Below, one piece after another: positions 3,801 to 37,658 of a stretch of 64,000 nucleotides of DNA. The stretch covers positions 381,159 through 445,158 of the forward strand of contig CAZNIK010000001.1 in NCBI GenBank assembly GCA_964573095.1, in the 5' to 3' direction. Made by a program: the position numbers and the translations under genes. Source of the DNA: an uncultured Candidatus Saccharibacteria bacterium (GTDB lineage: Bacteria > Patescibacteriota > Saccharimonadia > Saccharimonadales > 2-12-FULL-41-12). The notes beneath the pieces were generated by a model, which did not search any database, was not told the origin of the DNA, and saw nothing but the letters and a program-made list of their open reading frames with translations. Positions within the stretch are counted from its first letter, which is position 1, and every line of letters starts with the position of its first letter.

Positions 3801-3828
3801 AAGCTTTCGTCTTCTTTGATTATGATAA

Positions 3829-4443: not shown

Positions 4444-4472
4444 CTATGTTTTTCCCACCCGCTTACTTATTG

Positions 4473-5321
4473 CTAAAGCTTTAGTAGTAAATATACCCCA
4501 AAAAGCCCTGTTATGAAAATGATTAACCCCATTAATATTATTTGTATCAAGCCTTTATAAATGGTTTTTTTTGATAAAGGATTGCGCCCAATGGAAATCA
4601 AGGTGTTCCTAACGCCGCTATAAAGAATCACACCCGTAATTATCGCCGTTGCCAAAAACACTGTTGCCGCGAGGTATACTCGAATCGAGCTCACCGGCTT
4701 ATCGGCAACCGCAGCACCTACTTTTTTGAGGAAGCTTGGCACATCACTGCCTTCGGCCGTTTTCACAAGTGGATTTCGGTTAATCGAAATTGCGACTTGT
4801 ACTCGGCCAAAATGAATCGCTCGCCCCGAGCTCGATTGGGTGGTGCCGATGCTGTCTTCTTTTCCTTCGAACTTGTTAAGAGCCCGGCCAAGAATAATGC
4901 TTTGTTCTTCTCCAACTTTCATCCCTACACCAGCGAGAGAAGAAATACTAATATAATCTCCTGGTTGAATAGCGCCATTTTCATCACTTACTAACACATC
5001 GTTATTGCCAGCCGTCGACACAAACACCTTTTCTTTGTCACTACTTAGAGTAATTGGAGAATCATTTGCCTCGACCACAACCCCCTTTAGTCGATCCAGG
5101 GAGTCTTTGTTGATTGCTTCTACCTTATTGGGGTCATCTCTTCTTACTGCGACCATCATGCCACGTTGCAACTTCTGGTCAGACCCGTAACCTTTTGTCA
5201 CAGACTGTGCCGAAAGAGGACTGGTAAGGCTCAAGATGATCAAAAACAACAATCCAGCACCAGCGAAGAGACGCTGTCTAGGAAGCAGGTTACGAATTGA
5301 GTAGATGTTTATTTTTGCCAT
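4473..5321 (-). CDS. hypothetical secreted/membrane protein
   Basis: ORF 4473..5435 trimmed to the internal ATG at 5321 (MAKINIYSIRNLL...). This gives a signal-like N-terminus (LFLIILSLTSPLSAQS) and removes the overlap with the upstream desulfurase gene. Two C-terminal TM helices. No family recognised. Confidence 0.5.
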   Translation of the reverse strand: MAKINIYSIRNLLPRQRLFAGAGLLFLIILSLTSPLSAQSVTKGYGSDQKLQRGMMVAVRRDDPNKVEAINKDSLDRLKGVVVEANDSPITLSSDKEKVFVSTAGNNDVLVSDENGAIQPGDYISISSLAGVGMKVGEEQSIILGRALNKFEGKEDSIGTTQSSSGRAIHFGRVQVAISINRNPLVKTAEGSDVPSFLKKVGAAVADKPVSSIRVYLAATVFLATAIITGVILYSGVRNTLISIGRNPLSKKTIYKGLIQIILMGLIIFITGLFGVYLLLKL

Positions 5322-5370
5322 GGTCGAAAGGTGTTTCAGCCAATGTTGCGCACGTGGCACTAGTATACCT

Positions 5371-6540
5371 CTAGTGCTTCTCCGCAAGCAAGCTTTTTGA
5401 AGCGACCTTACGAAGTTGGTCAACGAATACATCAAGGTCGCTTTTTGTGGTTGCTCGGCCCATGCTTACCCGAATCGAACCTCGAATTTCTCGGTTGCTG
5501 CAGCCGATGGCTGTAAGTACGTGCGAAGGCTGTTCGTCGCTTTCGCTGCACGCCGATCCAGTTGCAACCCATATTCCTTCTTGATCGAGAGCCATCTGGA
5601 GACGTTCGTTATCATACCCGGGAAGCGAAAAGTTCAAATTATTTGGCAGACGGTGTTTCATCGACCCGTTTAGTTGCAGTGCTGGGAATGCCGATTTCAA
5701 TTGTTGGACGAGGTGTTTTTGTAGGCTAGAAAGTCGTCTCGCCTCAGCTTCCCTAATAGCTTGAGCTGTAGTTAGTGCAGCGCAAAACCCGAGGACCCCG
5801 GGGACGTTTTCTGTGCCGCTGCGCAATCCATTTTCTTGCCCACCGCCCTGTAGGAGGGGAGTCAGTTCTACCCCCGAACGGACAAACAGCGCACCGCTCT
5901 GTTTTGGGCCATATATCTTTCCGCCGTTAAGACTCATCAAATCGACTCCAAGTCGATGGGCTTGAAGCTGAAGGTAATTCGCAGACTGCGCCGCGTCGGT
6001 ATGCAAATACAGTGGAGTTTTGTTGCCGACCTTTCGTCGTGCAACCCTAATTTCTTCAAGCGCGTGGGCGATTTTTCTAAGTGGCTGAATGGTGCCAATC
6101 TCATTGTTGGCGTGCTGCACACTTACCAAAGATGTTGAATCATTAATGCGCTTCAACACTTCTCGGGCTTGCACAATGCCACTTTTGTCAACCGGCGCAA
6201 ATTGATGTTGATATCGTTTTGCAGGATAAAGTACAGAATGGTGTTCAATTTCTGAGACAACAATGTTCGTCTTTGGAAGCTTTTGTAACACGCCATGAAT
6301 CGCAATATTATTTGCCTCTGTGCAGCCAGCAGTAAAGATAACTTCTTTCGGTTTTACGCCAAGCGTTGCCGCAACTGTTTGACGAGCGTGTTCGAGGGTC
6401 GCCTTCGTTCGCCTTGCAGGGCTGTATTCTGCTGATGGGTTATAGAAATCCACCGAAAAATACGGTTGCATCACGGCAAAAACATCTTCCGCAACCGGCG
6501 TGGCGGATGCATAGTCCAAATAAATGCTCTGTTGCTTCAT
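5371..6540 (-). CDS. cysteine desulfurase (class V aminotransferase, NifS/IscS-like)
   Basis: IYLDYASATP N-terminus, PLP-lysine region LNGGKIYGPKQSGALF and active-site loop ATGSACSE. Start placed at MKQQSIY (6540). A GTG at 6573 is an alternative start. Confidence 0.85.
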   Translation of the reverse strand: MKQQSIYLDYASATPVAEDVFAVMQPYFSVDFYNPSAEYSPARRTKATLEHARQTVAATLGVKPKEVIFTAGCTEANNIAIHGVLQKLPKTNIVVSEIEHHSVLYPAKRYQHQFAPVDKSGIVQAREVLKRINDSTSLVSVQHANNEIGTIQPLRKIAHALEEIRVARRKVGNKTPLYLHTDAAQSANYLQLQAHRLGVDLMSLNGGKIYGPKQSGALFVRSGVELTPLLQGGGQENGLRSGTENVPGVLGFCAALTTAQAIREAEARRLSSLQKHLVQQLKSAFPALQLNGSMKHRLPNNLNFSLPGYDNERLQMALDQEGIWVATGSACSESDEQPSHVLTAIGCSNREIRGSIRVSMGRATTKSDLDVFVDQLRKVASKSLLAEKH

Positions 6541-6611
6541 CCTAATAAAATAATTATAGTCTGTATCCGTCACACCAGTCTATCGCTTGTGCGCAATTGT
6601 GAAAAAGATGA

Positions 6612-7385
6612 TTAAATTCCAAACAACTCTTGGGCGTTCATTGTTGTGCGCTTGGCAATCTGTTCCAGCGGCTCACCTCGCAGCTGAGACAAAAATTCGG
6701 CAACAAGTTTTACATACTCTGGCTTACAGACTTTACCTCGAAAGGGTTTTGGGGTTAAGAAGGGAGCGTCGGTTTCAAGCAGAAGCCTATCCAAAGGAAT
6801 TCTTTTGGCTGCTTCAAGCTGATCATCGTCTTTCGTAAAGGTCATTATTCCGTTTACGCCAACGTAGAGATTCCTGGCAAGCACTTGATCGAGAACACCG
6901 CCGTTCGACGAGAAGCTATGCACCACGCCATTTATTCCGCCGAAATTATCAACAATCGGCCAAAAATCCTCAAACGCATCTCGAACATGAAACACCACCG
7001 GCAGATTGTGTTTTTTCGCGACACCAAGCTGCCATTCGAGCAAGTTCCGCTGGCTGGACTTATCGGAGTGCTGATAATAGTAGTCGAGACCCGTTTCGCC
7101 AATCGCAACGATTTTATCGTCGTCTTTCTGAGAAAGTAATCTTTCAAATTTTTGGAGATTGGCTTCATCCGACAAAAATTCGTTGGCTTCGTGAGGATGA
7201 ATACCGATACTCGCCCATACTCCCTCGTGCGCTTTGGCAAATGAAATCGCGCCCTCACTATCATCAAGTCGACACCCTACGGCTAGCAGCTTGTTTACTC
7301 CATGCTGCTTTGAAGATTGCCACACTTCTTCCGCATCAAGTCCATACGAAGAAAAATGAATGTGGGCATGTGTATCTACGAGCAT
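6612..7385 (-). CDS. tatD: TatD-family metal-dependent hydrolase/DNase
   Basis: MLVDTHAHIHF start with HxH. The 257-aa length and ETDAPFLTP motif are typical of TatD. Confidence 0.9.
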   Translation of the reverse strand: MLVDTHAHIHFSSYGLDAEEVWQSSKQHGVNKLLAVGCRLDDSEGAISFAKAHEGVWASIGIHPHEANEFLSDEANLQKFERLLSQKDDDKIVAIGETGLDYYYQHSDKSSQRNLLEWQLGVAKKHNLPVVFHVRDAFEDFWPIVDNFGGINGVVHSFSSNGGVLDQVLARNLYVGVNGIMTFTKDDDQLEAAKRIPLDRLLLETDAPFLTPKPFRGKVCKPEYVKLVAEFLSQLRGEPLEQIAKRTTMNAQELFGI

Positions 7386-7434
7386 TACTAGGCTATCATT
7401 ATGCCATATATCAGTGATACGATGCGTAAAGCGT

Positions 7435-8286
7435 ATGACTCATTTTTCATCTGTTTGGAATGCCGCAAAACACACCGCCGTATCTAAAGGCTTAAAAATT
7501 ATTGAACATGGCTGGGAGCAACACGTCATCATTGACGAGACCCGCTCGATCGTCTATCGATATCCCAGAAACCAAAATGCTGCAAATAAGCTACTCGATG
7601 AGGTAGCCGTACTCAAGGGGCTACACACACTGCGCTGGGATACCTCTATTCCGAAGATTATTGAGCACCACCAACAATATTCCTCCTACCACTATATTCC
7701 TGGTGATGTGCTCAACCACAAAACGCTGTCGCATCTTCACCCCTCCGACCTTGATGCAATTGGCAACGAGTTGGGCATATTTCTCGCCACGCTGCACGCA
7801 GCGCCCCACAAAATTGTTGCGGCAAAGAAAACAAAACAAGCCATGAGCCTCCTCGAGTATTATCAAAAACGCATTGAAGGAAACGTCAAAACCCCACACT
7901 TCTCGCGGGCAAAATCAAGACTCGATCAACTTCTGTCGCGTTTTGCAGCCTCCCACGAATGGGTAGTTGTCCACGGCGATCTCCATGGATTAAATATTGT
8001 AGTACACACGAATCCCGGCCAGCTAGCGGGGGTTATTGATTTCAGCGAGGTTGAGCTTGGTGATCCGCATCAAGACTTTAGAAAGTTGTTCATGGTCAAC
8101 GAAAAATTGCTCGAATCGGCTCTCAAAAACTACCAAACGGTGACTTCAAAACGCCTTGATATCGAGACTGTTCGCCTCTGGGCATACGTCAACGAGTGGG
8201 CAAACATGTGTCACTTCTCAGATCAAGAGGGCAATGAAACCTTCAAGCGGGCCCTTTACCACCTCAAAAAATGGGGTGAGATTTAA
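7435..8286 (+). CDS. aminoglycoside/choline-kinase-like phosphotransferase (APH family)
   Basis: Catalytic-loop motif VVHGDLHGLNIVV and the DFSEVELGDPHQDF motif. Start moved to the ATG at 7435 to avoid overlapping the divergent tatD start. Confidence 0.7.
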   Translation: MTHFSSVWNAAKHTAVSKGLKIIEHGWEQHVIIDETRSIVYRYPRNQNAANKLLDEVAVLKGLHTLRWDTSIPKIIEHHQQYSSYHYIPGDVLNHKTLSHLHPSDLDAIGNELGIFLATLHAAPHKIVAAKKTKQAMSLLEYYQKRIEGNVKTPHFSRAKSRLDQLLSRFAASHEWVVVHGDLHGLNIVVHTNPGQLAGVIDFSEVELGDPHQDFRKLFMVNEKLLESALKNYQTVTSKRLDIETVRLWAYVNEWANMCHFSDQEGNETFKRALYHLKKWGEI

Positions 8287-9770
8287 GCCGTGGCAACCTC
8301 TTCGGATGTTGGCACAGAACTCTCTTCTTTCGGAAAAAGGGTTGTTTCAATTTTTTGAACCACGCCTGTCCCAAAAATATGGACAATTTTTTGAGAAGTT
8401 GTCGGCATAAATGGCTCAAGCAGTTCGGCAATCTCGATCAAACAACTCGCCATGTAGGCAAGCACTTCTCTTAAGTGGTCGCCGTCGTGGTTTTTTGCGA
8501 GCGCCCACGGCTTTTCCTCTTCAATATACTGATTAAGTCCCCGAACCTGCTGCCAGACGGTCTCGAGCGCCCTGTCAAACCGGCAGTGTTCTATGGCTTT
8601 TTCGTAGGCGGCAATATCGTGCTCCGAAGGCGGCATATCGCCAATAATACCTTGTTGATACTTGATTATCATCGCCGAGGTGCGGCTCACTGCGTTGCCC
8701 AGCTCGTTCGCGAGCTCATTGTTATAGACCTCTTCAAGTCGTTCCCAAGAAAATTCGCCATCTGAATAGCTAGGAATATGGCGCAAAAAATAATAGCGAA
8801 ACGCGTCAACGCCGTACTTGCTAATAATGTCATCTGGGCTCACCACGTTTCCCAAACTCTTACTCATTTTTTGTCCGTCGCTCATATTGATAAAACCGTG
8901 AATATAGAGCTTGTTTGGCAATGCAATCTCTAAGCCCATCAGTATCGCTGGCCAAATGATGGCATGAAAACGAGCAATATCTTTGCCAACAATCTGCACA
9001 TTGGCTGGCCAAAATTCCTTAAAATCGGAGTGTTCTGGGTAGCCAAGAACCGTCACGTAGTTCATAAGAGCTTCGAACCACACATACATCACTTGGGTGT
9101 TGTCGCCAGGCACAGGTATGCCCCACGAGATTTTTTCTTTTGGGCGACTAATACTGATATCTTCCAAGCCCTCATGCAATGTCCCGAGTATTTCGTTCTT
9201 TTTGGTTTGTGGAATAACTTGAAATTCTCCAGAGTCGATCGCCTTTTTGATTTGCTCAGCAAAATGCGTCAACTTAAAGAAGTAGTTATCTTCAGACAAT
9301 CTCTCGTAGGGTTTATCATGATTTGGGCACACACCGTTGTGTTCTTTGGCAGTTGCATCCGTCACAAAAGCCTCACAGCCCGTGCAATACCAACCCTCAT
9401 AAGTTGCTTTATAAATGTAGTCTTTCAAGGCCTGCCAAATCAGACCCGCCCGCTGTTCGTGACCTGGGTCGGTCGTACGAATAAATCGATCGTTACTGAG
9501 TTGGAGTTGCTCAGCAAGACGGCGAAACGAGTCACTCATTTTGTCAGCTAGTGCTTTCGGTGCGAGCCCCAGCTCAGCAGCCTTTTCTGCGACTTTACCA
9601 CCATGCTCATCGGTTCCAATACTAAAAATTACCTTGTGATAATTTTTGCTGCTTCGGGCGCTACGCGCCAGCACATCACCCATCACAAACTCCATGGCAT
9701 GTCCAAGATGCGGCTCGCCATTAATGTAGGGGATAGACGTGGTTACATAGTAGTTTTTCTGAGCACTCAT
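8283..9770 (-). CDS. metG: methionyl-tRNA synthetase
   Basis: Class I motifs PHLGHA (HIGH) and KMSKS, plus a Zn-knuckle region CTGCEAF...GVCPNH. 495 aa. Confidence 0.95.
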   Translation of the reverse strand: MSAQKNYYVTTSIPYINGEPHLGHAMEFVMGDVLARSARSSKNYHKVIFSIGTDEHGGKVAEKAAELGLAPKALADKMSDSFRRLAEQLQLSNDRFIRTTDPGHEQRAGLIWQALKDYIYKATYEGWYCTGCEAFVTDATAKEHNGVCPNHDKPYERLSEDNYFFKLTHFAEQIKKAIDSGEFQVIPQTKKNEILGTLHEGLEDISISRPKEKISWGIPVPGDNTQVMYVWFEALMNYVTVLGYPEHSDFKEFWPANVQIVGKDIARFHAIIWPAILMGLEIALPNKLYIHGFINMSDGQKMSKSLGNVVSPDDIISKYGVDAFRYYFLRHIPSYSDGEFSWERLEEVYNNELANELGNAVSRTSAMIIKYQQGIIGDMPPSEHDIAAYEKAIEHCRFDRALETVWQQVRGLNQYIEEEKPWALAKNHDGDHLREVLAYMASCLIEIAELLEPFMPTTSQKIVHIFGTGVVQKIETTLFPKEESSVPTSEEVATA

Positions 9771-9935
9771 ACAACTACTAGCCTATCAAACTATCAGACT
9801 ACACACTAGTGAGGTGCCAACAGCCGCACTCACTACATTTATATGGTTTTAGGGCAGTTCCACGCTGGTGATACAAGACCAACGCTTGAGCTTTTGCTTC
9901 GTGCTCGGTTCCGAATTTGAGCTTCCCGCTGCACT

Positions 9936-10997
9936 TCATGTCTTTAGCGTCTTTTTGGCAGAACGTTTTGCCTCGAGCACCGAATGCGAAATTGCAAGAC
10001 TAATAACGACCACACCAGCCAGCCCCGTTACATATTCTGGAATATGGTATTTTAGCGACAGCAGCATAAACACCGACAGTAACCCGATGGCATAATGCGC
10101 CCCGTGCTCCATATATATAAACTTCTCGAGCAGACCTCTTCGTAGCATATGAATCGTTATGGTTCGCACATACAACGCCCCAATGCCAAGACCAGTAGTA
10201 ATAAGCAGTACGTTGGTGGTGATCGCAAACGCGCCTATCACCCCATCCAAACTAAAGCTTGCATCAATTATTTCTAGATAAATAAAGCCCAAAAGTCCCG
10301 CCTTAAACGTATGGTGGGTTGCGCTAATGTGCTCGAGCGATCGTGTCGATTTTGATATAAGGGTATCCAAAGAATTGATAATCAAATAGATAACCATGCC
10401 AATTAATCCCGCAACGATTACCGAAATTCTTTCTGGTTCATCAACTAACCTGGAGGCGGCGAGCAGAACGATAAGGGCAGTGATCACATTTAGATTGGTC
10501 AGCTTTCCAGCTTTCTGGAGGATGGACTCTACGGAATTTATCCATTTAGTTTTTCGTGCGGTCGCAAAAAACTCGAGTGCAATCATCAACAAAAACATTC
10601 CTCCAAACGCGGCAATCATTGGCTTTGCATCATTCAGCAAGACACCGTAGGTTGTCGAGTCGTTTAGCGCAAGGTCGACAATTGCCCGAAAACTTTCCCC
10701 GGTCGCCAGAGCGACGATCAGTATCGGAAATACCAGTCGCACTCCAAAAACCGCAATAATAATACCAACAGTAAGGAACAGTTTTTGCCAAACTGGACTC
10801 ATGCGCCGCAAAATTTTGGCATTAATAACAGCGTTATCAAAACTAAACGTTATTTCTAGACCAGCAAGCACGAGGACAAGCAAAAAACCCTTAAGACCTT
10901 GTTGACTTGCCACGTACGCAATAAGACAAAAAGAAATAAGCGTCGAAAGCCAGTAAATTCTAAGCAAAGATGGTTGCTTGGCAAGTTTCTCGTTCAT
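9936..10997 (-). CDS. TerC/DUF475-family integral membrane protein
   Basis: 353 aa and polytopic, with a TFSFDNAVINAKIL motif characteristic of TerC-like proteins. Confidence 0.6.
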   Translation of the reverse strand: MNEKLAKQPSLLRIYWLSTLISFCLIAYVASQQGLKGFLLVLVLAGLEITFSFDNAVINAKILRRMSPVWQKLFLTVGIIIAVFGVRLVFPILIVALATGESFRAIVDLALNDSTTYGVLLNDAKPMIAAFGGMFLLMIALEFFATARKTKWINSVESILQKAGKLTNLNVITALIVLLAASRLVDEPERISVIVAGLIGMVIYLIINSLDTLISKSTRSLEHISATHHTFKAGLLGFIYLEIIDASFSLDGVIGAFAITTNVLLITTGLGIGALYVRTITIHMLRRGLLEKFIYMEHGAHYAIGLLSVFMLLSLKYHIPEYVTGLAGVVVISLAISHSVLEAKRSAKKTLKT

Positions 10998-11122: not shown

Positions 11123-11514
11123 GGGGCTGATTTTAAGCTCGACATTGGACCTTTACAAGTTAGTTTGCAAGCCGCTTGTCAGCGTCATAGACAAACTTTT
11201 TAAATGCAAACGCGTTTAAGAATGTCGCTAGTGCAGTAAAGAGCTTCTTTGCGCCTAGCTACGCATTCGCTGTAGCCTAAGAGCTCGCAGCTGCGAATGG
11301 TGTGACTTCAGATAGCACCATTTCGTATCATATTTTCTGAATAGACTTTTGCATCTGATCTGCCGCATAGTCGAAACTTTTAGATCTGCGAATCAAAGCC
11401 ATTTGGTTGTTTGTTCAGCTTTGATTCTAAGCAAGCGATAAACAACCTAAGCTTGTAGAAGACTAACTACAATAAAGCCGATGGACGCGGGGGCAGAGCC
11501 CGCCAGCTCCACCA
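11123..11514 (+). ncRNA. ssrA: tmRNA (transfer-messenger RNA); 3' end taken as the first CCA
   Basis: 5' GGGGCTGATTTTAAGCTCGAC pairs with 3' CAGCTCC-ACCA, a 7-bp acceptor stem including the G3:U identity pair. Internal tag reading frame is present. T-arm is GCGGG-GGCAGAG-CCCGC. Length of 392 nt is typical. See the finding on the duplicated 3' end. Confidence 0.85.
11206..11280 (+). other. putative tmRNA tag-peptide reading frame (ANAFKNVASAVKSFFAPSYAFAVA*)
   Basis: In-frame GCA resume codon to TAA with a hydrophobic Ala-rich C-terminus (AFAVA), as in proteolysis tags. The resume codon was chosen by eye. Confidence 0.45.
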
Positions 11515-11552: not shown

Positions 11553-11671
11553 TAAAGTTAGTCAAGTGGCTCTGCCCGAGAGGGTGAGGATTGCCAGCGA
11601 CAATCCGAAGAATCATTGCTTGGCCGCCTTGCGCAATTGCCTATGGCAATTTTGTCGCAGGCGCAGAATAG
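11553..11671 (+). repeat. hairpin-rich module between the two ssrA 3' ends (divergent member of the tRNA-linked module family)
   Basis: Contains GGCTCTGCCC, the reverse complement of the upstream T-loop GGGCAGAGCC. Also contains GGGTGAG followed by the hairpin GGATTG-CCAGCGA-CAATCC, and the hairpin AATTGCC-TAT-GGCAATT. The motif order matches the tRNA-Glu module. Confidence 0.6.
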
Positions 11672-11702
11672 TTCGAGCCCGCCAGCTCCACCAATAAAAG
11701 TA
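11672..11702 (+). pseudogene. second (displaced or alternative) ssrA 3' end with a canonical TTCGAG T-loop, plus repeat copy 2
   Basis: TTCGAGCCCGCCAGCTCCACCA (CCA ends at 11693) followed by AATAAAAGTA. A weak terminator CCTAC-TAGCAT-GTGGG-G-TTTTTT follows at 11704..11726. Confidence 0.7.
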
Positions 11703-11795
11703 TCCTACTAGCATGTGGGGTTTTTTCTTTGTCAATAGTTGTGTGGGTTTTTGGTTATGCTTGCATGTTGTTAGTAATTGCTTAGAATTAAGCTC

Positions 11796-12062
11796 ATGAC
11801 AGCGAACTTCTCAACTGAGACCGACCACGCAAAGGGCGAAGCTGTGAGCTTATACCCCAAAGAGGGTGTAGAGCTGGAATACAGAGGTAGAGTAAGTCTA
11901 CATATTGGCTCTGTTGTAATTAACAACTGTGTTGAGAAATTAACGACCCACAGTGACGTCTTAGACCTAGTGACCCAAGAGAGCCCCAACAGTCGCCGGG
12001 TCGTGGCCTCGTCAAAAGACACTGAATCTTTGCCCGCGGTACGATCAATTAAGTTGATGTAA
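11796..12062 (+). CDS. hypothetical small protein (weak call)
   Basis: 88-aa ORF from ATG 11796. An equally long mirror ORF lies on the opposite strand, there is no clear SD, and no family is recognised. Confidence 0.25.
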   Translation: MTANFSTETDHAKGEAVSLYPKEGVELEYRGRVSLHIGSVVINNCVEKLTTHSDVLDLVTQESPNSRRVVASSKDTESLPAVRSIKLM

Positions 12063-12134
12063 TAAAGTGGGCGATTAAACAATCAAAACGCTGGTGCTTG
12101 CATTTGTCGGTCGTAGTTTGTAGATTAGAGCTTT

Positions 12135-12584
12135 ATGGAGTTTAAAAAAATCAAGCGCGAGCAAGGATTGGTGCACGAAGTTACCTTCACCGCGGATGAG
12201 TCCAAGATTATTAGTGCAATATATACGGAAGCCATTAACTATCGAATAAAGCACGGAAACACTTCCTCGATAAGCGATCATGACACATGTCTCGCTAGAG
12301 CATACAACAAGCCCAGCGGCATAAAGGGTATCTTCGGCGCATTAGAAAATTTACACAACACTATCCATGAGTTCGTGGAAAGGACTGATTCTGAGTCCGC
12401 TAGCCTCACAGAAGTTGATTCCTCCTACAGAAACCATGACGCCATCGAAAGAATCGAGTATGGCAAGGCTGCCGAGAAGATGTTGGGCGAGCTACAAGAA
12501 CACCTGCAAGCCGAGCGCCAACACCTCCCCCCGCTTCCAGACACGTGGGAGGTGCCAGACCGCCCGCCAAAAGACCTACTCTAA
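12135..12584 (+). CDS. hypothetical protein
   Basis: 149-aa ORF, acidic with a Pro-rich tail (LPPLPDTWEVPDRPP). No recognisable motif. Confidence 0.5.
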   Translation: MEFKKIKREQGLVHEVTFTADESKIISAIYTEAINYRIKHGNTSSISDHDTCLARAYNKPSGIKGIFGALENLHNTIHEFVERTDSESASLTEVDSSYRNHDAIERIEYGKAAEKMLGELQEHLQAERQHLPPLPDTWEVPDRPPKDLL

Positions 12585-21300: not shown

Positions 21301-22731
21301 CTACAACACCCGTACCTTTATGGTGTCTGTTGTGCCCATCACGCCGGGGTACTTTCCAGAGGCAGTTACGACTACATCGCCTCTCTTTAATACCTTGCTC
21401 CGATGAAGCCAATTTGTCAGCTTGGTAGCTTGAAGCTTATTGTCGGGGCGAACATAACTTTTTGTGCCGTACACAACTGCAAGTTGCTGCGCCACTCTTG
21501 GGACAGAGGTGGCGGCGATTATCGGTATATTCGGCCTTCGAGACGAAACATGAAGTGCGGTCGCGCCAGATTTAGTTTCGGCCACAATTGCAACCGCATC
21601 AACCGAATTCGCAAGACGAATAATAGCGTTCGATATGGCGCGCGTCTTACCAGGCAGACTATCTATGTCAACAAGTACTGGACCGTGCAAGGCGTGACTC
21701 TGCGTGTAGGTCACTACCCGCTTCATCACAGAGACTGCTTCGATAGGGTATTTCCCGCTCGCCGTCTCGTCACTTAGCATTACCGCATCTGTGCCAAGCA
21801 ATACGGCTGTGGCGACGTCAGACACCTCGGCTCGCGTTGGCTCGGGCGACTCGCTCATACTCGCCAGCATTTGAGTGGCTACGATGGTTGGCTTGGCATG
21901 CTTCATCCCCAATTCAATAATTTTCCTTTGGATAATTGGTACTTCCTCGGGCAGTGTTTCGGTAGCCAAGTCGCCGCGGGCCACCATAAGTCCATCAGAT
22001 TCTTGCGCAATTAACTCTAGGTGGACAACTGCCAGCCTAGTCTCAATCTTGGCAATAATTTTGGCTGATGAACCCAAGTTAACTAACAATCGGCGCAGCT
22101 TTTTTATGTCGTCTGGCGTCTGAACAAAGCTCAGCGCCACATAGTCGATATCATTGGTTGAACCATAGGCAATATCTTCTTGGTCTTTTTTGGTAATAAT
22201 ATCTCCCAAAAAATCTGTATCGGGCACGTTGATCCCTTTGCGCTTTATCAAAATTCCACCGTTCTCGGCGCGCACAAACACCTTTTTGTCTTTTACAGCA
22301 GTTACCGTGGTCCTAATTTTGCCATCATAAAGATAGAGTCGCTCGCCCCGTTTTACCTTTTTACTAAGATCATACTGAATCGGCAGCACACCCGTTCGCT
22401 CATAATCAGCTTCATAGCCAAACGTGAGACTTTGCCCAAGCGCAACATTTACGATCCCTTCAAAATCACCCAGGCGTATTTTGGGACCTTGCAAATCTTG
22501 AATAATTGCGACCGGTTTCCCCGCTGCTTTTGAGGCTTTGCGTATCCACGCTATTTGCTGATCTCGCTCTTTGTGGGTGCCATGACTAAAGTTAAGACGA
22601 AGACCATTCGCCCCAGATTTAATCAGTCGCTCTATCGACTCGTATGAGTTTGTAGAAGGGCCGACCGTGGCTATAATTTTGGTTCTTTTGAACGCTTTAA
22701 GAGGTACGTTTGGTATTTTATGTGTTGACAC
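21301..22731 (-). CDS. pyk: pyruvate kinase
   Basis: TKIIATVGP, NFSHG, MVARGDL and a C-terminal regulatory domain. 476 aa. Confidence 0.9.
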   Translation of the reverse strand: MSTHKIPNVPLKAFKRTKIIATVGPSTNSYESIERLIKSGANGLRLNFSHGTHKERDQQIAWIRKASKAAGKPVAIIQDLQGPKIRLGDFEGIVNVALGQSLTFGYEADYERTGVLPIQYDLSKKVKRGERLYLYDGKIRTTVTAVKDKKVFVRAENGGILIKRKGINVPDTDFLGDIITKKDQEDIAYGSTNDIDYVALSFVQTPDDIKKLRRLLVNLGSSAKIIAKIETRLAVVHLELIAQESDGLMVARGDLATETLPEEVPIIQRKIIELGMKHAKPTIVATQMLASMSESPEPTRAEVSDVATAVLLGTDAVMLSDETASGKYPIEAVSVMKRVVTYTQSHALHGPVLVDIDSLPGKTRAISNAIIRLANSVDAVAIVAETKSGATALHVSSRRPNIPIIAATSVPRVAQQLAVVYGTKSYVRPDNKLQATKLTNWLHRSKVLKRGDVVVTASGKYPGVMGTTDTIKVRVL

Positions 22732-22812
22732 TCGAAATCATCCCACCAGTTGATTTTCTGATTGTATATCTGTCAATAGTGTAACCGTTTATGGCTATTT
22801 GGGGCAACTATT

Positions 22813-23231
22813 CAAAACAACCAACTAAAATACCCCGGGCAGAACCGGGGCGCTTTAGTTGGTGACCTCAAGGGGAATCGACTCACCTTCGGCGAGCCCG
22901 TCGCAACATCTTTCAAAACCAGTTTTGAAGAGTTGACTCCCTTGCGCAGTGCCACCGGCACTGCTCACCCGATTGGGCAATAGGGGTTCGAGTCATAAAA
23001 AAACAACCAACTAAAATACCCCGGGCAGAACCGGGGCACTTTAGTTGGTGACCTCAAGGGGAATCGACTCACCTTCGGCGAGCCCGTCGCAACATCTTTC
23101 AAAACCAGTTTTGAAGAGTTGACTCCCTTGCGCAGTGCCACCGGCACTGCTCACCCGATTGGGCAATAGGGGTTCGAGTCATAAAAAAACAACCAACTAA
23201 AATACCCCGGGCAGAACCGGGGCACTTTAGT
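22813..23231 (-). repeat. tandem array: 2 full 186-bp units plus a partial third, each holding a terminator, a structured module and the last 22 nt of tRNA-Glu
   Basis: The period is exactly 186 bp (CAACCAAC anchors at 22818, 23004 and 23190). The units differ at 1 position (22851 g vs a). The tRNA-Glu 3' fragment TCGATTCCCCTTGAGGTCACCA (minus strand) lies at 22860..22881 and 23046..23067. Terminator copies lie at 22813..22859, 22999..23045 and 23185..23231. Confidence 0.95.
23185..23231 (-). terminator. rho-independent terminator directly after tRNA-Glu CCA
   Basis: Minus strand: ACTAAAGT-GCCCCGG-TTCTGC-CCGGGG-T-ATTTTAGT followed by TGGTTGTTTTTTT. The G:U wobble is compatible with the minus-strand RNA. 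Confidence 0.7.
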
Positions 23232-23306
23232 TGGTGACCTCAAGGGGAATCGAACCCCTATTGCCGGGATGAAAACCCGGTGTCCTAACCGTTAGACGAT
23301 GAGGCC
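23232..23306 (-). tRNA. tRNA-Glu (anticodon TTC), CCA encoded
   Basis: GGCCTCA-TC-GTCT-AACGGTTA-GGAC-A-CCGGG-TTTTCAT-CCCGG-CAAT-AGGGG-TTCGATT-CCCCT-TGAGGTC-ACCA gives a full cloverleaf of 75 nt. Confidence 0.9.
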
Positions 23307-23388
23307 ATACGCTGTGCTTGGTTTGAATTGTTAAGCTTACTGCTGCTATGTGCTAAAACTTGTTATCTAGAACGGTTAAGATGTCCTA

Positions 23389-23475
23389 GTCACGTTCCGC
23401 GACCCCGAAACTTCGCTATTGGCAAACCAGTTGCCATCGGAAGGTTTCCTTGCAAGCTGCCACTGGCAGTTCTCA
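23389..23475. repeat. 87-nt structured core module upstream of tRNA-Glu (about 89% identical to 45572..45658)
   Basis: Hairpins on the + strand are GTCACG-TTC-CGCGAC, TGGCAA-ACCAG-TTGCCA, GGAA-GGT-TTCC and AGCTGCC-ACT-GGCAGTT, followed by TCA. See findings. Confidence 0.85.
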
Positions 23476-23494
23476 CGTTAGACGATGAGGCCAT
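23476..23494 (-). pseudogene. orphan 5' fragment of tRNA-Glu (nt 1-17 plus 2 upstream nt)
   Basis: The minus strand ATGGCCTCATCGTCTAACG is identical to 23290..23308 and lies exactly 186 bp upstream of the intact gene. Confidence 0.9.
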
Positions 23495-23527
23495 TCTCTC
23501 TTGTTTAGCTGGGGTATTTTAGCAAAT

Positions 23528-23568
23528 AAACCCCAGAAGCTCCACCCTTCTGAGGTTTATCGTTTTTG
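23528..23568. terminator. stem-loop/terminator between the surface-protein operon and the tRNA-Glu locus
   Basis: AAACCCCAGAAG-CTCCACC-CTTCTGAGGTTT (12-bp stem with 1 mismatch), followed by a T-run on the + strand. Confidence 0.4.
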
Positions 23569-23676
23569 CTAAATTGTAGTGTTAGTTTTCTTGAGCGGTC
23601 AGTCATTGCTCTCGTAACTAATGAAACATTAGCACATTTTGTGGTTCTTGACTAGACCACTTATCCACAGAACTGT

Positions 23677-25323
23677 TTAGACACGGTAGTACTTGCGCGA
23701 GAAGACATAGTAGCCAACACCGCTCGCAAGACTGACTGCAACAAAGATTGCTGCAACATCACCAGGACCCGTGTCCGGCAACGAGGTTGTAGTCGTGCCG
23801 GTTGGAGGCGTAACAGGAGGTTTTGGAGGAGTTGGTGGCGTCGTGAAGTTAAGCGCAGCTGCACACTTATCGCTCTCAGCAATCTTTAGCTCACCGTTCA
23901 CCAAAACTTCTACCTTTACGCGAGCAACGTATTGCCCATCTTTTGCATACGTGTGCTCGACCATGCTTTGGTCAGTTTTGAATTCTTCTGTGCCGTCACC
24001 AAAGGTGTAGAAGTATCGCTTGATAGTTGCACCATTGGTTGCAGTGGCGTTTGTAGTGAACTTGACCGTTCTGCCTTGCAAAATTTGAGCTTGCAACAGA
24101 TCACAACTATACGTTGGGTTTACTGGAGGATTACAGTTCTCTTTGGTAATAACTACGTCAGCGTCATCTTTAATCTCATACGGATACTCTTTCGACTTCG
24201 CGTACGCGACGTTCCGTATTCGTGTTTGACATGGTTCAAAGTCGCCCTTAAGCACAGTTGTAAACGTTATCAATGTATTGTCATTTGGGTTATACTTACC
24301 GGCGTTGTAGCCCCCGCCAAACAATGGTCCATCGAGAAGAGTTTGACTACCTTTTGCGTTAGTAAACTTCACCGATCCTGGAACAAGTTCAACATGGGGT
24401 GGCAGTGCATCTCGAGTAACTACGTCGGTAAGTGGCGCAAGACCAGTGTTCTTGGTGTTCAATAACCAATCGACTTTCTCCCCGGGCTTTCCAGAAACTT
24501 CGGATACCCATCCGCCGGTTTGACCCGACTTGTTCTTCCTAACTTGTTTTGTAAGGCCCATGTTAGGCACTTCTTTGGGTGTGACAACTACGGTAATTTG
24601 AACTTGAGCATCATACTGGAAACAACCTGGAAGATTGCCATTAAGTTCGTTCCAGCCAATTTTAGTACCGGTTGTAACTACGCTGTCTGGCAGCGTAACA
24701 CCGTTGGCAAACGGACCGTTGTTTCGGAGTATTGCCGAACCTGGCTTGTAGCTCATAGTAAAGTTTTTAGTCGATGTGAAGTCAACCGTATCAACGACTT
24801 GACTCGGGGTTGCGTTACTTGCAGAAATATAACCAACTGCTCGTAGCGCATTTCCTTCTACTCCAGGTAACGCAAATCGAACGGTCGTGTCTTTTGCGAT
24901 CCCCTTGCCACTCGCATTGGTGTTTTGGTTGGCATTGTTGTGAACGTACATACGAAGCACAACTTCTTTGCTTGCGCCGGTGGTTACATTCGTTAGAGGA
25001 TCTTTGTAGCTGCCGGCGGCGGTGTTTTCTTTAAGCCGTGCGTCAAGAAACTCACGCTCGTCACCATAGCTTGGTGTATTAACAAAAGAGTTAAATACAG
25101 GACCGTTTAATGAGCCGCAGCGTCCGTTTTGGGTAGCTGGGTCATTCGCGTCGTCGTTACAATTGCTACTAGCACTGCCTTTGTTGTAGTCAAAGGTTGG
25201 ACGACCTGGAAAGAATCCAGCATCAACCACAAGTGGTGCTACAACTACTGCAGTCAAAGAACCTACTACTATTGCCAACTTGGTCTTGCGACTAAGAGAG
25301 CGTATTTTGTTGAAAATCCTCAT
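23677..25323 (-). CDS. LPXTG-anchored cell-surface protein
   Basis: N-terminal signal/TM, Ig/PKD-like repeats (YFYTFGDGTEEF), a Pro/Thr linker and a C-terminal LPDTG plus hydrophobic helix plus RKYYRV sorting signal. Confidence 0.8.
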   Translation of the reverse strand: MRIFNKIRSLSRKTKLAIVVGSLTAVVVAPLVVDAGFFPGRPTFDYNKGSASSNCNDDANDPATQNGRCGSLNGPVFNSFVNTPSYGDEREFLDARLKENTAAGSYKDPLTNVTTGASKEVVLRMYVHNNANQNTNASGKGIAKDTTVRFALPGVEGNALRAVGYISASNATPSQVVDTVDFTSTKNFTMSYKPGSAILRNNGPFANGVTLPDSVVTTGTKIGWNELNGNLPGCFQYDAQVQITVVVTPKEVPNMGLTKQVRKNKSGQTGGWVSEVSGKPGEKVDWLLNTKNTGLAPLTDVVTRDALPPHVELVPGSVKFTNAKGSQTLLDGPLFGGGYNAGKYNPNDNTLITFTTVLKGDFEPCQTRIRNVAYAKSKEYPYEIKDDADVVITKENCNPPVNPTYSCDLLQAQILQGRTVKFTTNATATNGATIKRYFYTFGDGTEEFKTDQSMVEHTYAKDGQYVARVKVEVLVNGELKIAESDKCAAALNFTTPPTPPKPPVTPPTGTTTTSLPDTGPGDVAAIFVAVSLASGVGYYVFSRKYYRV

Positions 25324-36718: not shown

Positions 36719-37483
36719 CTAGGGTTGAAGGGTGCCACCAAAAACTTGCCAGGCAAGAAGCGATTTTGCGACCAGGCTCAAGATAATATACGCGCGCTCG
36801 CCATACAAATAATCCCTCCATGGTCCAACCTTTTTGTACTGAAGCACCATATTTACAGCAAAACAACTAAAGAAAATAAAGATCGACACAAATATCCAAT
36901 AGACAAACGTGGGCGCTCGACTACCATTTTCGGCACCGAGCCACATGTAAAGTGCAATCACAAGCCACGGGATAATCCCGGCAAAACACCCGATGTAATA
37001 GCTCAGCCAATTCGTTGTCTTGGTGGTCTGATTATGGACCTCCATTACGAGTCCCATGAGGTTCATAACTGATGTTAAGGCAAATATCATTAGCAAACTA
37101 CTAAGGTCGTACACGCCCACCAACGCTGCAATCGCAACCATCATCACGCTTGCGGAAATCGAATATTCGACCCACCTTAGCCTATTGATTCCTAGTTTTA
37201 GCTCTTTTTCGTATCGTCGATTATAGCTTGTAGCAATTACAAAATGAAAAATCGCCGAAAGAAAGAAAAACGCTGCAATCAACCACGGTAATTCAACATT
37301 AAACAAAGCTGTGGTGGTTGGCTGAAGTGACTCTGTTTGTTGATTAAAGAAAAGATAGGTGCCAGAAATTGGTATCTCAAATGATTTGCTTATTACAAGC
37401 ACAATCACACCTTGCGCGAGGTGCAAAAACCCCGCAATGATGTTTAGTTGTTTTAATTTTTGCGGTGTTATTTTTCTTGCCAT
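36719..37483 (-). CDS. heliorhodopsin
   Basis: 7-TM protein with close motif-level match to heliorhodopsin 48C12. Matching blocks are IAGFLHLAQ (His), IFHFVIA (His), RWVEYSISASVMM (counter-ion Glu) and GERAYIILSLVAKSLLAWQVFGGTL (retinal Lys). Start set at MARKITPQ (37483). Confidence 0.85.
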   Translation of the reverse strand: MARKITPQKLKQLNIIAGFLHLAQGVIVLVISKSFEIPISGTYLFFNQQTESLQPTTTALFNVELPWLIAAFFFLSAIFHFVIATSYNRRYEKELKLGINRLRWVEYSISASVMMVAIAALVGVYDLSSLLMIFALTSVMNLMGLVMEVHNQTTKTTNWLSYYIGCFAGIIPWLVIALYMWLGAENGSRAPTFVYWIFVSIFIFFSCFAVNMVLQYKKVGPWRDYLYGERAYIILSLVAKSLLAWQVFGGTLQP

Positions 37484-37658
37484 GTTTCGACTATAGCACA
37501 CGTACTTTTCACAATAACAAAAGGACAGCTAGCGAACCATATCCCAGCCGTTTTGGCTTTTTGGTTGTTTACATGTTTATTTTTGCTTTCGTACCTCTAA
37601 TTATACGACTATTGTCAATAGCACTACAAAAAAGTTTGATATTTAGTTGCACAAGTAA

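Follow-up and report, generated by a model that had tools for sequence, protein, structure and literature searches.

Why should an intact tRNA gene be followed by a near-perfect tandem array built partly from its own 3′ end, and be preceded by a piece of its own 5′ end at the same repeat distance? The question is posed by tRNA-Glu(TTC) in a 64-kb stretch of assembly GCA_964573095.1 (contig CAZNIK010000001.1, positions 381,159–445,158), which we call the window. An earlier note had described this locus and suggested that the array arose by serial integration of a tiny attP-bearing circle.

The tRNA-Glu locus

The gene and the units on either side of it are made up of the following parts, given in the direction of transcription.

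23476–23494, minus strand: upstream unit, two leader nt plus tRNA-Glu nt 1–17, 19-nt exact copy (repeat search)
23389–23476, minus strand: upstream unit, structured module (covariance model match 23385–23476, 106.4 bits, E = 8e-22)
23371–23388, minus strand: upstream unit, stub TAGGACA (tRNA nt 20–26), then inverted D-loop copy (repeat search, sequence)
23232–23306, minus strand: tRNA-Glu(TTC), intact, CCA encoded (ARAGORN; Rfam tRNA, 63.9 bits)
23182–23235, minus strand: terminator 1, 19-bp stem in which the CCA end pairs with TGG, then U tract (hairpin search, sequence)
23162–23180, minus strand: unit 1, antisense (inverted) copy of the variable loop/T-arm, 18/19 nt (repeat search)
23153–23161, minus strand: unit 1, short sense stub CAATCGGGT, variable loop plus 5′ strand of the T-stem (read from sequence)
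23068–23154, minus strand: unit 1, structured module, hairpins H1–H3, GTGAG start, GGTGAG end (covariance model, match 23064–23154, 94.4 bits, E = 3.6e-19; covariation)
23046–23067, minus strand: unit 1, tRNA T55–CCA copy, 22/22 nt (repeat search)
22996–23049, minus strand: terminator 2, same sequence as terminator 1 (hairpin search)
22976–22994, minus strand: unit 2, inverted variable loop/T-arm copy, 19 nt, 1 mismatch (repeat search)
22882–22968, minus strand: unit 2, structured module (covariance model match 22878–22968, 94.4 bits)
22860–22881, minus strand: unit 2, tRNA T55–CCA copy, 22 nt (repeat search)
22814–22863, minus strand: terminator 3, one G/A difference, array end (repeat and hairpin searches)

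ARAGORN and Rfam agree on tRNA-Glu(TTC) at 23232–23306 of the minus strand. The 186-bp period with one mismatch between units, as described in the earlier note, is recovered both by Tandem Repeats Finder (22814–23253, 2.4 copies, 99% matches, 0 indels, score 873) and by the repeat search, in which the full units 22814–22999 and 23000–23185 are 99% identical and a partial third copy of 68 nt, at 23186–23253, overlaps the 3′ end of the gene. The sole mismatch between the two full units is a G/A difference within the terminator stem, and repeat identity ends at the U tract of terminator 3. Every part of the succession of terminator, structured module and last 22 nt of the tRNA (T55–CCA), which had been said to occur twice, could be located, as could the inverted variable-loop/T-arm copy reported for each unit (22976–22994 and 23162–23180, 1 mismatch). 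The stub CAATCGGGT pairs as a hairpin with the inverted copy of unit 1 and shares the first two bases of the module; the same layout of stub plus inverted copy is found in more than 40 other loci.

On the upstream side, the 19-nt copy of the 5′ end (23476–23494) breaks in the D-loop and lies exactly 186 bp from the gene. Beside it is the module that had been called homologous, here matched by the covariance model at 106.4 bits, and an inverted D-loop copy (23371–23381) spans the breakpoint of the 5′ copy. An extended −10-like TGCTAAAAT lies 5′ of the 19-nt copy. Thus, the details given for the tRNA-Glu locus all hold, and a chance origin is impossible for any of them. Judged by sequence identity, the 99–100% agreement of the local units would be explained equally well by unequal crossing-over between the 68-nt repeats and by serial integration.

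Related strains and assembly

Comparison with sister genomes, proposed in the earlier note, reveals that copy number varies: a 98–99% identical strain, L088 (GCA_041907465.1), has one downstream unit where the window has two, and its terminator loop is flipped relative to that of the window. At ~90% identity, L056 lacks the downstream module and keeps the upstream unit. L056 and the window agree at ~20 of 22 nt in the stub and inverted D-loop stretch, and the spacer that follows is not alignable. A PKD-domain gene is among the neighbours of the locus.

The note had also raised the possibility that the array is an artefact of assembly. Short-read (Logan) contigs of the same strain do end within the upstream module or where the 68-nt repeat begins, and, as these repeats assemble poorly, the single unit of L088 could itself be a collapse. 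The full units differ at one base and have unique flanking sequence, however, the independent assembly of L088 contains the same locus, and the same architecture recurs in at least ~200 independent loci from many assemblies, including other tandem units. An artefact is therefore scarcely credible. Module repeats do break short-read assemblies at tRNA loci, and they can mislead tRNA annotation.

Other occupied loci in the window

Three of the eight tRNA and tmRNA genes in the window carry the module. The second and third occupied loci are tRNA-Lys and tmRNA.

45658–45712, minus strand: copy of tRNA-Lys nt 1–55, 5′ of the gene, spacing 187 (repeat comparison)
45568–45659, minus strand: structured module, upstream side of tRNA-Lys (blastn; covariance model, 111.3 bits)
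45549–45571, minus strand: sense stub CGAGTCC of tRNA-Lys, then inverted T-arm copy TCTCGAACCCTC (repeat comparison)
45449–45525, minus strand: tRNA-Lys(CTT), intact (ARAGORN, Rfam)
45303–45366, minus strand: diverged module 3′ of tRNA-Lys, GCC-GGT-GGC hairpin kept (covariance model, 16.5 bits, E = 0.056)
45263–45284, minus strand: tRNA-Lys T55–CCA copy, 186 nt from its partner in the gene (repeat comparison)
11123–11514, plus strand: tmRNA gene (Rfam RF00023, 80.2 bits)
11568–11577, plus strand: inverted copy of the tmRNA T-loop region GGCTCTGCCC (repeat comparison)
11584–11654, plus strand: diverged module 3′ of tmRNA (covariance model, 18.9–20.6 bits, E = 0.016–0.006)
11675–11702, plus strand: tmRNA 3′ end copy (GAGCCCGCCAGCTCCACCA plus 9 nt), 179 nt from its partner (repeat comparison)

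The upstream modules of tRNA-Lys and tRNA-Glu are 95% identical over 66 nt by blastn, and a promoter-like site lies 5′ of the tRNA-Lys 5′ copy. The downstream module of tRNA-Lys scores weakly (16.5 bits, E = 0.056) and sits where a module is expected. The arrangement at the tmRNA is seen again in L066, but there the module is full-scoring. GC skew is uniformly negative across the window, with tmRNA head-on and tRNA-Glu and tRNA-Lys co-directional; module orientation tracks the gene, not the direction of replication. These copies and the wider family described below go beyond the local view of the earlier note.

A family of units across Saccharibacteria

When 185,579 species genomes were scanned for the module pattern, 87 loci were recovered, almost all of them under the titles Saccharibacteria or Saccharimonadales, and a metagenome pattern scan returned at least 120, for a total of at least ~240 module copies in at least ~200 Saccharibacteria loci. 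The module pattern is absent from 2.9 million viral contigs, and an exact 30-mer of the local tRNA-Glu unit has no match in JGI metagenomes. A same-strand tRNA adjoins 82 of the 96 modules of the genome set (within 400 nt) and, among the matches listed, 104 of the 147 modules of the metagenome set (within 300 nt). Taking the listed matches of both sets together, an intact tRNA is the neighbour of 186 of 243 modules (~76%), with 98 modules on its downstream side and 88 on its upstream side; the tRNAs flanked in this way belong to more than 20 species, and tmRNA is flanked as well.

The architecture is regular. In downstream units the module is always followed by the T-loop-to-CCA copy, which matches at 21 or more of 22 nt in 23 of 46 cases, whereas in upstream units the tRNA 5′ part is duplicated ahead of it, in a copy that reaches the −10 box or leader in several loci and ends at a breakpoint between nt 17 and 66, in the D, anticodon, variable or T loop. 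Also present in every unit are a short stub of the tRNA and, in inverted orientation, a copy of the intact target. The median spacing is 186 nt for downstream and upstream types alike, and breakpoint and spacer are inversely related (r = −0.86). Tandem units also occur in L026, L032, L109, L166, and L217. Two other accounts of the duplications were rejected. A 95-bp target duplication around the module fails because the adjoining sequence is tRNA stub plus inverted copy rather than the distal flank, and a retro-copy of a terminated or mature transcript fails because duplications reach the −10 box (L070 and L076) or extend past the U tract (L026).

Insertion points lie in the D-loop, at position 26, and in the anticodon, variable, and T loops, nearly always after G-G-(G)-T and with 0–4 nt lost. 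In two loci (L047 and L012) a module sits within a module at the same GGGT site, one pseudo-copy (L052) holds two modules, and in L059 a module interrupts a complete but decayed tRNA-Ala-like gene with mismatched stems, with no duplication within the 200 nt examined. Modules are also found inside the loops of non-tRNA hairpins (L126, L163, L103, L128, and L196). These cases suggest that the module itself is able to insert. In L103 and L128, a terminator loop that is not essential also shows partial duplication, so duplication seems to come with insertion.

Fold and conservation of the module

The module is ~88–90 nt long and folds into three hairpins, H1–H3, with H1 and H3 at opposite ends. 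When the three window copies are aligned, 11 of 32 pairs are compensatory. For 92 copies taken from 80 genome loci, pairing holds in 96.5% of cells and both sides change in 25 of the 32 pairs, compared with 26–51% pairing in slid controls, although these counts come from an alignment fitted with the structure model and hence carry a model-fitting bias. A first G-U pair occurs in 74 of 82 sequences and a second in 33, which restricts the fold to the tRNA-sense strand. Loop sequences are conserved as well (GCC-NGU-GGC, AACUGGUU, and GCAAGG), and orthologous tRNA-Ser modules in L063, L043, and L015 differ by compensatory changes. The GUGA ends might be taken for a K-turn or box C/D motif; this was discarded, as the 3′ GUGA lies within a covarying helix.

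No Rfam family matches the module: cmscan of 22000–24500 at E up to 10 gave only tRNA and noise, and the whole window at gathering score gave tRNAs and tmRNA only, with no intron, ribozyme, or other family. Folded as circles, upstream units have z scores of −0.2 to −0.7, no better than shuffles, and downstream units have z scores of −4.6 to −8.9 that are largely driven by the terminator. A viroid-like or retrozyme circle was rejected on the lack of an Rfam ribozyme match and of structure beyond that of shuffles in the upstream units. In the literature, tRNA group I introns of Patescibacteria are described (PMC13011429), and we found nothing on this module or its units; the module and its 186-bp units are apparently an undescribed family.

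Could the flanking fragments be exons and the module a true tRNA intron, self-splicing or spliced by protein? The tmRNA T-loop and the anticodon loops of tRNAs are known sites of group I introns (PMC13011429 and references therein), Patescibacteria have many such introns in their tRNAs, and the likeness extends to the phylum, to insertion in tRNA and tmRNA loops including the T-loop, and to an upstream flank that usually ends in U. The loop positions are typical of non-canonical tRNA introns, and the module starts with GUGAG. An intact, uninterrupted gene lies beside 186 of the 243 modules among the matches listed, however, and the only complete interrupted gene (L059) has decayed stems. Because the interrupted copies are fragments beside an intact gene, splicing is neither needed nor possible, and, being truncated, they could not yield a tRNA. 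Group I introns have a conserved P3–P9 core and usually span 200 nt or more, whereas the module, at 88 nt, falls far under group I or group II size and matches no Rfam intron at E up to 10. This possibility is largely refuted, and we regard it as very improbable.

Alternatively, the module could be a structured non-coding RNA or cis-acting element of benefit to the host, co-transcribed with tRNA precursors and acting in their processing, stability, or regulation, with the partial tRNA copies keeping it beside its clients. The strong covariation, the conserved loops and G-U pair, and the compensatory changes between the tRNA-Ser orthologues would all suit such a role. So would the −10-like and promoter-like sites 5′ of the tRNA-Glu and tRNA-Lys 5′ copies, which would place upstream modules in the pre-tRNA leader. 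However, only three of eight tRNA and tmRNA genes in the window carry the module, it is gained and lost between relatives, downstream copies lie 3′ of strong terminators, and nesting, tandem copies, and cassette arrays are the behaviour of a mobile element. A host role of this kind is improbable.

Cassette arrays

In seven loci (L202, L193, L146, L009, L044, L177, and L098), units alternate with segments of 0.5–1.7 kb. Their cargo includes GNAT, XRE-HTH, LigT-like, hydrolase, racemase, pilin-like, and small unknown proteins, and the same unit type can carry different cargo, as in L009 compared with L044. Each segment terminates in a degenerate tRNA 3′ end of which the last 7–10 nt are kept. 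The inter-cassette blocks, composed of terminator, inverted copy, three-hairpin module, and tRNA 3′ ends, can be aligned from the degenerate tRNA 3′ fragment through the module to the next CCA, and the sequences flanking them are unrelated. All seven loci thus have gene cassettes parted by a structured site, as integrons do. Such an alternation of units with single-gene cassettes bounded by tRNA 3′ ends would be expected if small circles used the duplicated tRNA ends as attachment sites.

Integration, insertion, and the search for a recombinase

A Pfam scan of 50 of the 56 window ORFs of at least 150 aa detected housekeeping genes only, with no integrase, transposase, reverse transcriptase, or HUH protein; the six ORFs outside the scan mostly overlap longer annotated ORFs. 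When 1016 ORFs from the 87 loci were clustered in search of a recurrent partner protein, only syntenic housekeeping families emerged, as judged by eye from sequence. In the array loci, a crude tyrosine-recombinase motif screen yielded nothing convincing, and no candidate recombinase stood out in domain scans of ten cargo proteins.

The earlier proposal of serial integration of an attP circle stands in part. T-loop anchoring, the tRNA 3′ direct repeat (22–68 nt, T55–CCA with or without terminator) that characterizes integrative elements, the difference in copy number between strains, and the cassette arrays all speak for integration. The simple form, with one integrase and its attP, is not supported: no integrase was found on or beside the element among the Pfam-scanned window ORFs and the partly scanned array ORFs, nested modules occur, and in place of one attB per integrase there are more than 20 tRNA species plus tmRNA with both 5′- and 3′-type duplications. 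Given this range of targets, the repeats of 5′ parts, and breakpoints from nt 17 to 66, one site-specific integrase cannot suffice.

Could the ~88-nt module instead be a small non-autonomous insertion element that inserts, in the form of single-stranded DNA or RNA, behind GG(G)T in the hairpin loops of strongly transcribed stable-RNA genes? The partial copies would then arise by template switching or fold-back synthesis, as in tandem inversion duplications, or be the sole survivors because tRNA genes are single-copy and essential, and tandem copies and cassette arrays would reflect later recombination between repeats. Such an element would account for the many loop positions hit after a shared motif with few nt lost, the same-site nesting and doubled pseudo-copy, the simple insertion of L059, the non-tRNA hairpin loops, and the partial duplication at the terminator loops of L103 and L128. 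It would also fit the forward-inverted-forward layout of downstream units around the terminator palindrome, whose loop is flipped in L088, and an orientation that follows the gene and not replication. However, neither the window Pfam scan nor the ORF clustering gave a transposase or reverse transcriptase, terminal inverted repeats and fixed target duplications are both lacking, and the upstream layout is incompatible with symmetric inversion duplication. The regular architecture, with its ~186-nt spacing and r = −0.86, is unlike error-prone template switching. In addition, module, stub, and inverted copy are conserved between the window and L056 where the adjacent spacer is not alignable, and module scores remain high at loci whose 3′ fragment retains fewer than 15 of 22 nt, a pattern that points to ongoing constraint and not to a dead insertion. 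On balance, we consider this explanation rather unlikely.

A proposed tRNA-anchored cassette family

We tentatively favour the interpretation that Saccharibacteria have a family of small cassettes of their own, anchored at tRNA and tmRNA genes, and that the 186-bp units are those of its members that carry no cargo. The anatomy of the units, the existence of the family, its strand-specific covarying fold, its tight association with tRNA and tmRNA genes, the different unit numbers of related strains, and the arrays of cassettes are observed; a circular intermediate, a trans-acting recombinase, and a module that serves as folded recognition site, in single-stranded DNA or RNA, rather than as catalyst are what we infer from them. 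One side of the module joins a tRNA copy running from the insertion point (usually T54|T55/C56) to the outer end of the gene and bringing with it the terminator (downstream type) or the −10 box and leader (upstream type). On the other side comes a tRNA stub of 7–10 nt and then the inverted copy of the uninterrupted target. Entry would be through recombination in the duplicated tRNA segment, as expected of a small circle the length of one unit, and would always leave an intact, expressed tRNA gene. The direct repeats would let units be gained or lost, the extra tRNA 3′ ends could act as further attachment sites, and in other genomes single genes could have been captured between successive units to give integron-like arrays. 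The cassette model has no explanation for the inverted target copy and the constant upstream spacing of ~186 nt.

It is possible, if somewhat unlikely, that these features belong to a new mobile system. A self-contained unit of ~186 nt, its conserved three-hairpin core acting on nucleic acid directly or with a recombinase and its sense and antisense target copies guiding both strands, would enter any stable-RNA loop with the gene rebuilt, and the tRNA-end arrays that capture single genes would be a by-product. Such a system would give these ultra-small parasitic bacteria a tRNA-anchored, integron-like platform for gene capture.

Saccharibacteria have genomes of ~1 Mb, single-copy tRNA genes, and few recognised mobile elements. 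A conserved folded element that settles again and again in tRNA and tmRNA genes and leaves them undamaged would give the candidate phyla radiation a new route to genome plasticity and gene acquisition, the more so as the module marks the junctions of small accessory-gene arrays. The module is also a new structured nucleic-acid motif, with at least ~240 examples and strong covariation, and a candidate recognition site, ribozyme, or guide scaffold.

Relation to known systems

Integrative elements reportedly use tRNA and tmRNA genes as attB, with a T-loop or 3′-end sublocation, according to the surveys of Williams. The units resemble these elements in their T-loop-to-3′-end direct repeat, restored intact gene, tandem accretion, and use of tmRNA as a target, but are ~186 bp or single-gene in size, have no integrase found on or near them, use more than 20 tRNA species, include a mirror-image 5′-duplicating type and breakpoints in other loops, and combine, in each unit, a conserved structured module with the inverted target copy. 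With integron attC arrays they share single, mostly same-strand accessory genes, a structured, strand-specific, covarying separator, cargo-less sites, and cargo of GNAT, HTH, and small unknown proteins. An attC site, however, is a single imperfect R″-L″/L′-R′ hairpin with a GTTRRRY core, whereas the separator here is ~200–300 nt long, with two tRNA 3′ end copies, a terminator, and the three-hairpin module. No IntI or attI was seen, the arrays are anchored to tRNAs, and the module sequence is highly conserved, unlike that of attC.

Non-canonical archaeal tRNA introns and split or permuted tRNAs, with their bulge-helix-bulge motif, are a further point of comparison. They share breaks at D, anticodon, variable, and T loops and complementary flanks, but the host here is bacterial, no bulge-helix-bulge is evident, and the pieces are redundant with an intact gene. 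TIGR-Tas systems, with 36-nt dual-spacer units, box C/D motifs, and an adjacent Nop-domain Tas protein, also occur in candidate-phyla-radiation bacteria and have repeated units that match both target strands (PMC12045711). They were rejected as a model on the basis of the 186-nt unit, the lack of evident box C/D motifs, and the lack of a Nop-domain match in the window ORFs.

Among short elements, the REPINs, MITEs, and Rickettsia palindromic elements are non-coding, structured, and multi-copy, and some enter RNA genes. The module resembles them as a structured multi-copy element of reduced or compact genomes, but its targets are almost all tRNA or tmRNA loops, it has no terminal inverted repeats, and each copy comes with a partial target duplication and an inverted target copy. 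The placement of H1 and H3 at the ends, the strand-specific fold, and the GG(G)T target recall miniature elements of the IS200/IS605 type (PATE) and REPINs; the insertions here, however, come with long partial duplications, and we take the hairpin-to-end distances of the module to differ from those of IS608. No Y1 HUH transposase or RAYT turned up in the 64-kb window or in the 1–15-kb loci. Tandem inversion duplications are said, from work in Salmonella, to form at quasi-palindromes. The forward-inverted-forward order of tRNA 3′ ends in the downstream units, with the terminator palindrome as one turning point, and the flipped terminator loop of L088 are like such events, whereas the third copy carries a module, the upstream units do not fit, and the arrangement recurs at many genes and in many lineages.

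The tRNA-Glu array

The repeats beside tRNA-Glu have the structure that the earlier note read from sequence. Tandem Repeats Finder describes a near-perfect tandem array at 22814-23253 (period 186 bp, 2.4 copies, 99% matches, zero indels), and a repeat search resolves it into two complete 186-nt copies and a third, partial 68-nt copy overlapping the tRNA-Glu 3′ end. Read on the tRNA strand, each unit carries the tRNA end, terminator, structured module, and inverted variable-loop/T-arm copy that the note had listed.

The tRNA-Glu gene and the parts of its downstream unit, in order
23232-23306, minus strand: tRNA-Glu(TTC), called by ARAGORN and Rfam
Part 1: final 22 nt of tRNA-Glu, T55 to CCA
Part 2: long terminator hairpin with CCA paired to TGG in the stem, then a U tract
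Part 3: antisense copy, 19 nt, of the variable-loop/T-arm segment (18/19 nt match)
Part 4: sense stub, 9 nt, from the variable-loop/T-arm segment
Part 5: module of about 88 nt

The reported upstream fragment is likewise present: an exact copy of tRNA-Glu nt 1-17 plus two leader bases lies 186 nt upstream of the gene, followed by a homologous module, a 7-nt sense stub (nt 20-26), and the inverted D-loop copy, all read in the sequence. That the array is an assembly artefact is scarcely credible. The sister-genome comparison of copy number proposed in the note shows one downstream unit in L088 (GCA_041907465.1), an independently assembled strain with 98-99% identity, versus two in the window. Logan contigs of the window's strain (L089-L097) end 214-242 nt or 441 nt past the PKD-domain gene, within the upstream module or where the 68-nt repeat starts; short-read assemblies thus break at these elements. 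The first tRNA-Glu terminator has a 6-nt loop whose sequence in L088 (GCAGAA, about 6085-6095) is the reverse complement of that in the window (TTCTGC, 23211-23216), between unchanged imperfect stems; this difference is a small hairpin-loop inversion.

The module fold

Three window copies of the module form three hairpins, with 11 of the 32 pairs compensatory (RNAalifold). Across 92 copies from other genomes 96.5% of cells are paired, a figure somewhat inflated because the alignment was fitted to the model, compared with 26-51% in slid controls. Both-sided changes occur in 25 of the 32 pairs in these copies, and none of 500 shuffles matched any observed measure. A G-U pair occupies one position in 74 of 82 sequences and a second position in 33, so the fold exists on the tRNA-sense strand only, as RNA or single-stranded DNA. 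The loop and junction sequences GCC-NGU-GGC, GCAAGG, and AACUGGUU are near-invariant; hairpin 1 is hypervariable at its centre, where changes are perfectly compensated. The module has no family in Rfam 15, and we consider it improbable that it is purely a host-beneficial RNA. A second version, whose central domain differs and is longer (…GGCCGGAAGCCGGATGACGAACGTCACCGACTGAGGCGGGGTCGC…) but whose 5′ hairpin and 3′ end are unchanged, occurs at eight other loci (L025, L058, L077, L079, L115, L167, L186, and L193).

Occupied loci and distribution

Low-stringency blastn with the units as queries revealed a third module in the window, next to tRNA-Lys(CTT) and 95% identical over 66 nt; this locus carries the unit design both upstream and downstream of the gene. 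A covariance model built on three copies picked up all four strong copies in the window and gave two weak matches, both exactly at positions predicted by the design.

Unit design at tRNA-Lys and tmRNA
Upstream of tRNA-Lys: nt 1-55 copy, module, stub, antisense T-arm, short spacer with TACAAT, intact gene
Downstream of tRNA-Lys: terminator, diverged module keeping the GCC-GGT-GGC hairpin (weak match), tRNA-Lys T55-CCA copy
tmRNA: module flanked by the terminator and a duplicate tmRNA 3′ end (weak match)

Taken together, the strong copies and the weak matches at predicted sites indicate that 3/8 of the window's tRNA/tmRNA genes are occupied; four others examined, all tRNAs, have plain flanks.

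A module-derived pattern scanned against 185,579 species, with one genome per species, matched 87 loci, nearly all in Candidatus Saccharibacteria or Saccharimonadales MAGs. The few titled otherwise have no covariance-model match or are short contigs, which may be mis-binned Saccharibacteria sequence. A second pattern yielded at least 120 loci in metagenomes, and the module pattern had no match in viral contigs. Modules accompany more than 20 tRNA species, and a module lies antisense to its tRNA in one case, L055.

Modules near same-strand tRNAs
Genome set: 96 modules; 82 within 400 nt of a tRNA (50 downstream, 32 upstream)
Metagenome set, among the matches listed: 147 modules; 104 within 300 nt of a tRNA (48 downstream, 56 upstream)

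Breakpoints and spacing

A T55/C56-to-CCA copy follows downstream units in every case, matching at 21/22 nt or better in 23/46 and decayed to fewer than 15/22 nt in 11/46; ahead of the module lie a terminator, a degenerate in-register inverted tRNA 3′ copy, a small loop, and a 10-nt sense stub. In upstream units the module comes after a duplicate of the tRNA 5′ part, which reaches the -10 box and leader in several loci and breaks at nt 17 (D-loop), about 25, 37-38, 45-48, or 50-66; beyond the module lie a stub and an inverted copy that runs across the breakpoint. The left junction is almost always preceded by G-G-(G)-T; T-loop junctions fall between T54 and T55/C56. The loss is 0-4 nt across all sites and 0-1 nt for those in the T-loop.

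The duplicated segment lies a median of 186 nt from its partner in both unit types. In upstream units a more 3′ breakpoint goes with a shorter spacer (r = -0.86), such that breakpoint, module, and spacer sum to 184 ± 7; in downstream units the constant spacing results from the forward-inverted-forward layout around the terminator. A general rod-like circle was unsupported by whole-unit circular folds.

Cassette arrays

Twenty-six metagenomic modules have no ARAGORN tRNA nearby and no adjoining Rfam RNA gene. Many belong to units of the downstream type in which only a degenerate 3′ end, closing an ORF-bearing segment, represents the "tRNA". At two such module-bearing loci, L202 and L193, one order is repeated three times: ORF, degenerate tRNA-Lys 3′ end (GGCCCTCCA kept), terminator, inverted copy, stub, module, good T55-CCA copy, promoter-like sequence, next ORF. 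Other arrays are tRNA-Lys (L177, and L098, which adjoins an intact tRNA), tRNA-Gly-like (L146), and initiator-tRNA-like (L009, L044, and L057). The alignment between inter-cassette blocks begins at the degenerate fragment, takes in the module, and ends at the following CCA, with unrelated cargo on either side; L009 and L044 have near-identical units with different cargo behind. Cargo includes GNAT, XRE-HTH, DUF6326, LigT-like phosphoesterase, alpha/beta hydrolase, Asp/Glu racemase, pilin-like, and unknown small proteins.

Such arrays are the outcome expected if single-gene circles integrate in a tandem array like that of the window, at the tRNA-end core within its additional 3′ fragments. We tentatively favor, at slightly under even chances, reading the window's 186-bp units as cargo-less members of a tRNA-anchored cassette system. 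The module and flanking target copies would form a site for recombination or recognition; crossover would take place in the duplicated tRNA segment, which would also safeguard the intact essential gene. Counting against this reading are the 5′-type units, the bare-module insertions, and the absence of a recombinase among window ORFs of at least 150 aa and the partly domain-scanned ORFs of array loci.

The initiator-tRNA-like units are preceded by a sequence (…CGTTCCAATTCGAATGCACCTGGGCTACCA) that has no tRNA call from ARAGORN or Rfam and looks like a degenerate T-arm-to-CCA fragment ending a cassette. The L193 array (1-10000) lies beside DNA methyltransferase-like (DPPW motif) and restriction-modification-like genes, recognized by sequence motifs only, which suggests a variable defence-type region.

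Bare modules and related systems

Modules are nested inside other modules, at one site, in L047 and L012, and L052 is a single pseudo-copy with two modules. Non-tRNA hairpin loops hold modules in L126, L163, and L196, and in L103 and L128 a module accompanies partial duplication of such a hairpin. In L059 a tRNA-Ala-like gene, complete but decayed, holds the module, and the 200 nt examined show no duplication. We consider it very improbable that the module is a true intron. The main rival, which we regard as rather unlikely, treats the bare module as an insertion element that targets loops of stable-RNA genes; duplications would then arise by template switching or as the sole viable products to survive, and arrays would be secondary. 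Against it stand the regular unit architecture, the constant spacing, and the conserved stub and inverted copy. In L056, a relative of about 90% identity, the upstream unit is kept (module 95% identical to the window's) with stub and inverted copy nearly unchanged (about 20/22 nt) beside an unalignable spacer; downstream of tRNA-Glu there is the inverted copy only, without a module. At tRNA-Glu(CTC) of the same MAG (L046), a downstream unit is 92% identical to the window's.

Among known systems, the units most resemble tRNA-gene integrative elements, with which they share the tRNA 3′-end direct repeat, and integron cassette arrays, with which they share a structured inter-cassette site. Unlike the former, the units have no single attB and no integrase among the ORFs searched; unlike the latter, they have neither attC architecture nor an integrase among those ORFs, and thus by defining features they belong to neither. 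Group I introns, which are the tRNA insertions known from this phylum (PMC13011429), and TIGR arrays (PMC12045711) were each rejected as identities. A full-text literature search of incomplete coverage, which does not prove novelty, found no published description. We rate the units as putative small integrative cassettes at tRNA genes, a variant for which no earlier description was found; that they form a mobile or gene-capture system of a categorically new kind seems doubtful.

Other observations in the window

The tmRNA T-loop reads GGCAGAG (11496-11502) rather than the usual TTCRANY, and GGCAGTA in L066, another module-bearing locus; the downstream inverted copy at tmRNA matches the unusual T-loop. 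About 400 nt past the tmRNA unit (11730-12140) hold no ORF of at least 150 aa and no Rfam match. At 45160-45262 (minus strand), TTAGTTCCAATAGCAACAC, the motif at cargo-cassette ends in L193 and L202, directly follows the tRNA-Lys 3′ fragment, with AGTTCAAGTCCCATTAGGTC further on; both may be relics of lost cassettes. ARAGORN calls tRNA-Arg(TCG) on both strands at 47676-47766; Rfam backs the minus-strand gene alone (47693-47766), which makes the plus-strand call look spurious. The window also encodes a heliorhodopsin (36719-37501) and cytochrome oxidase subunits (57305-60809).
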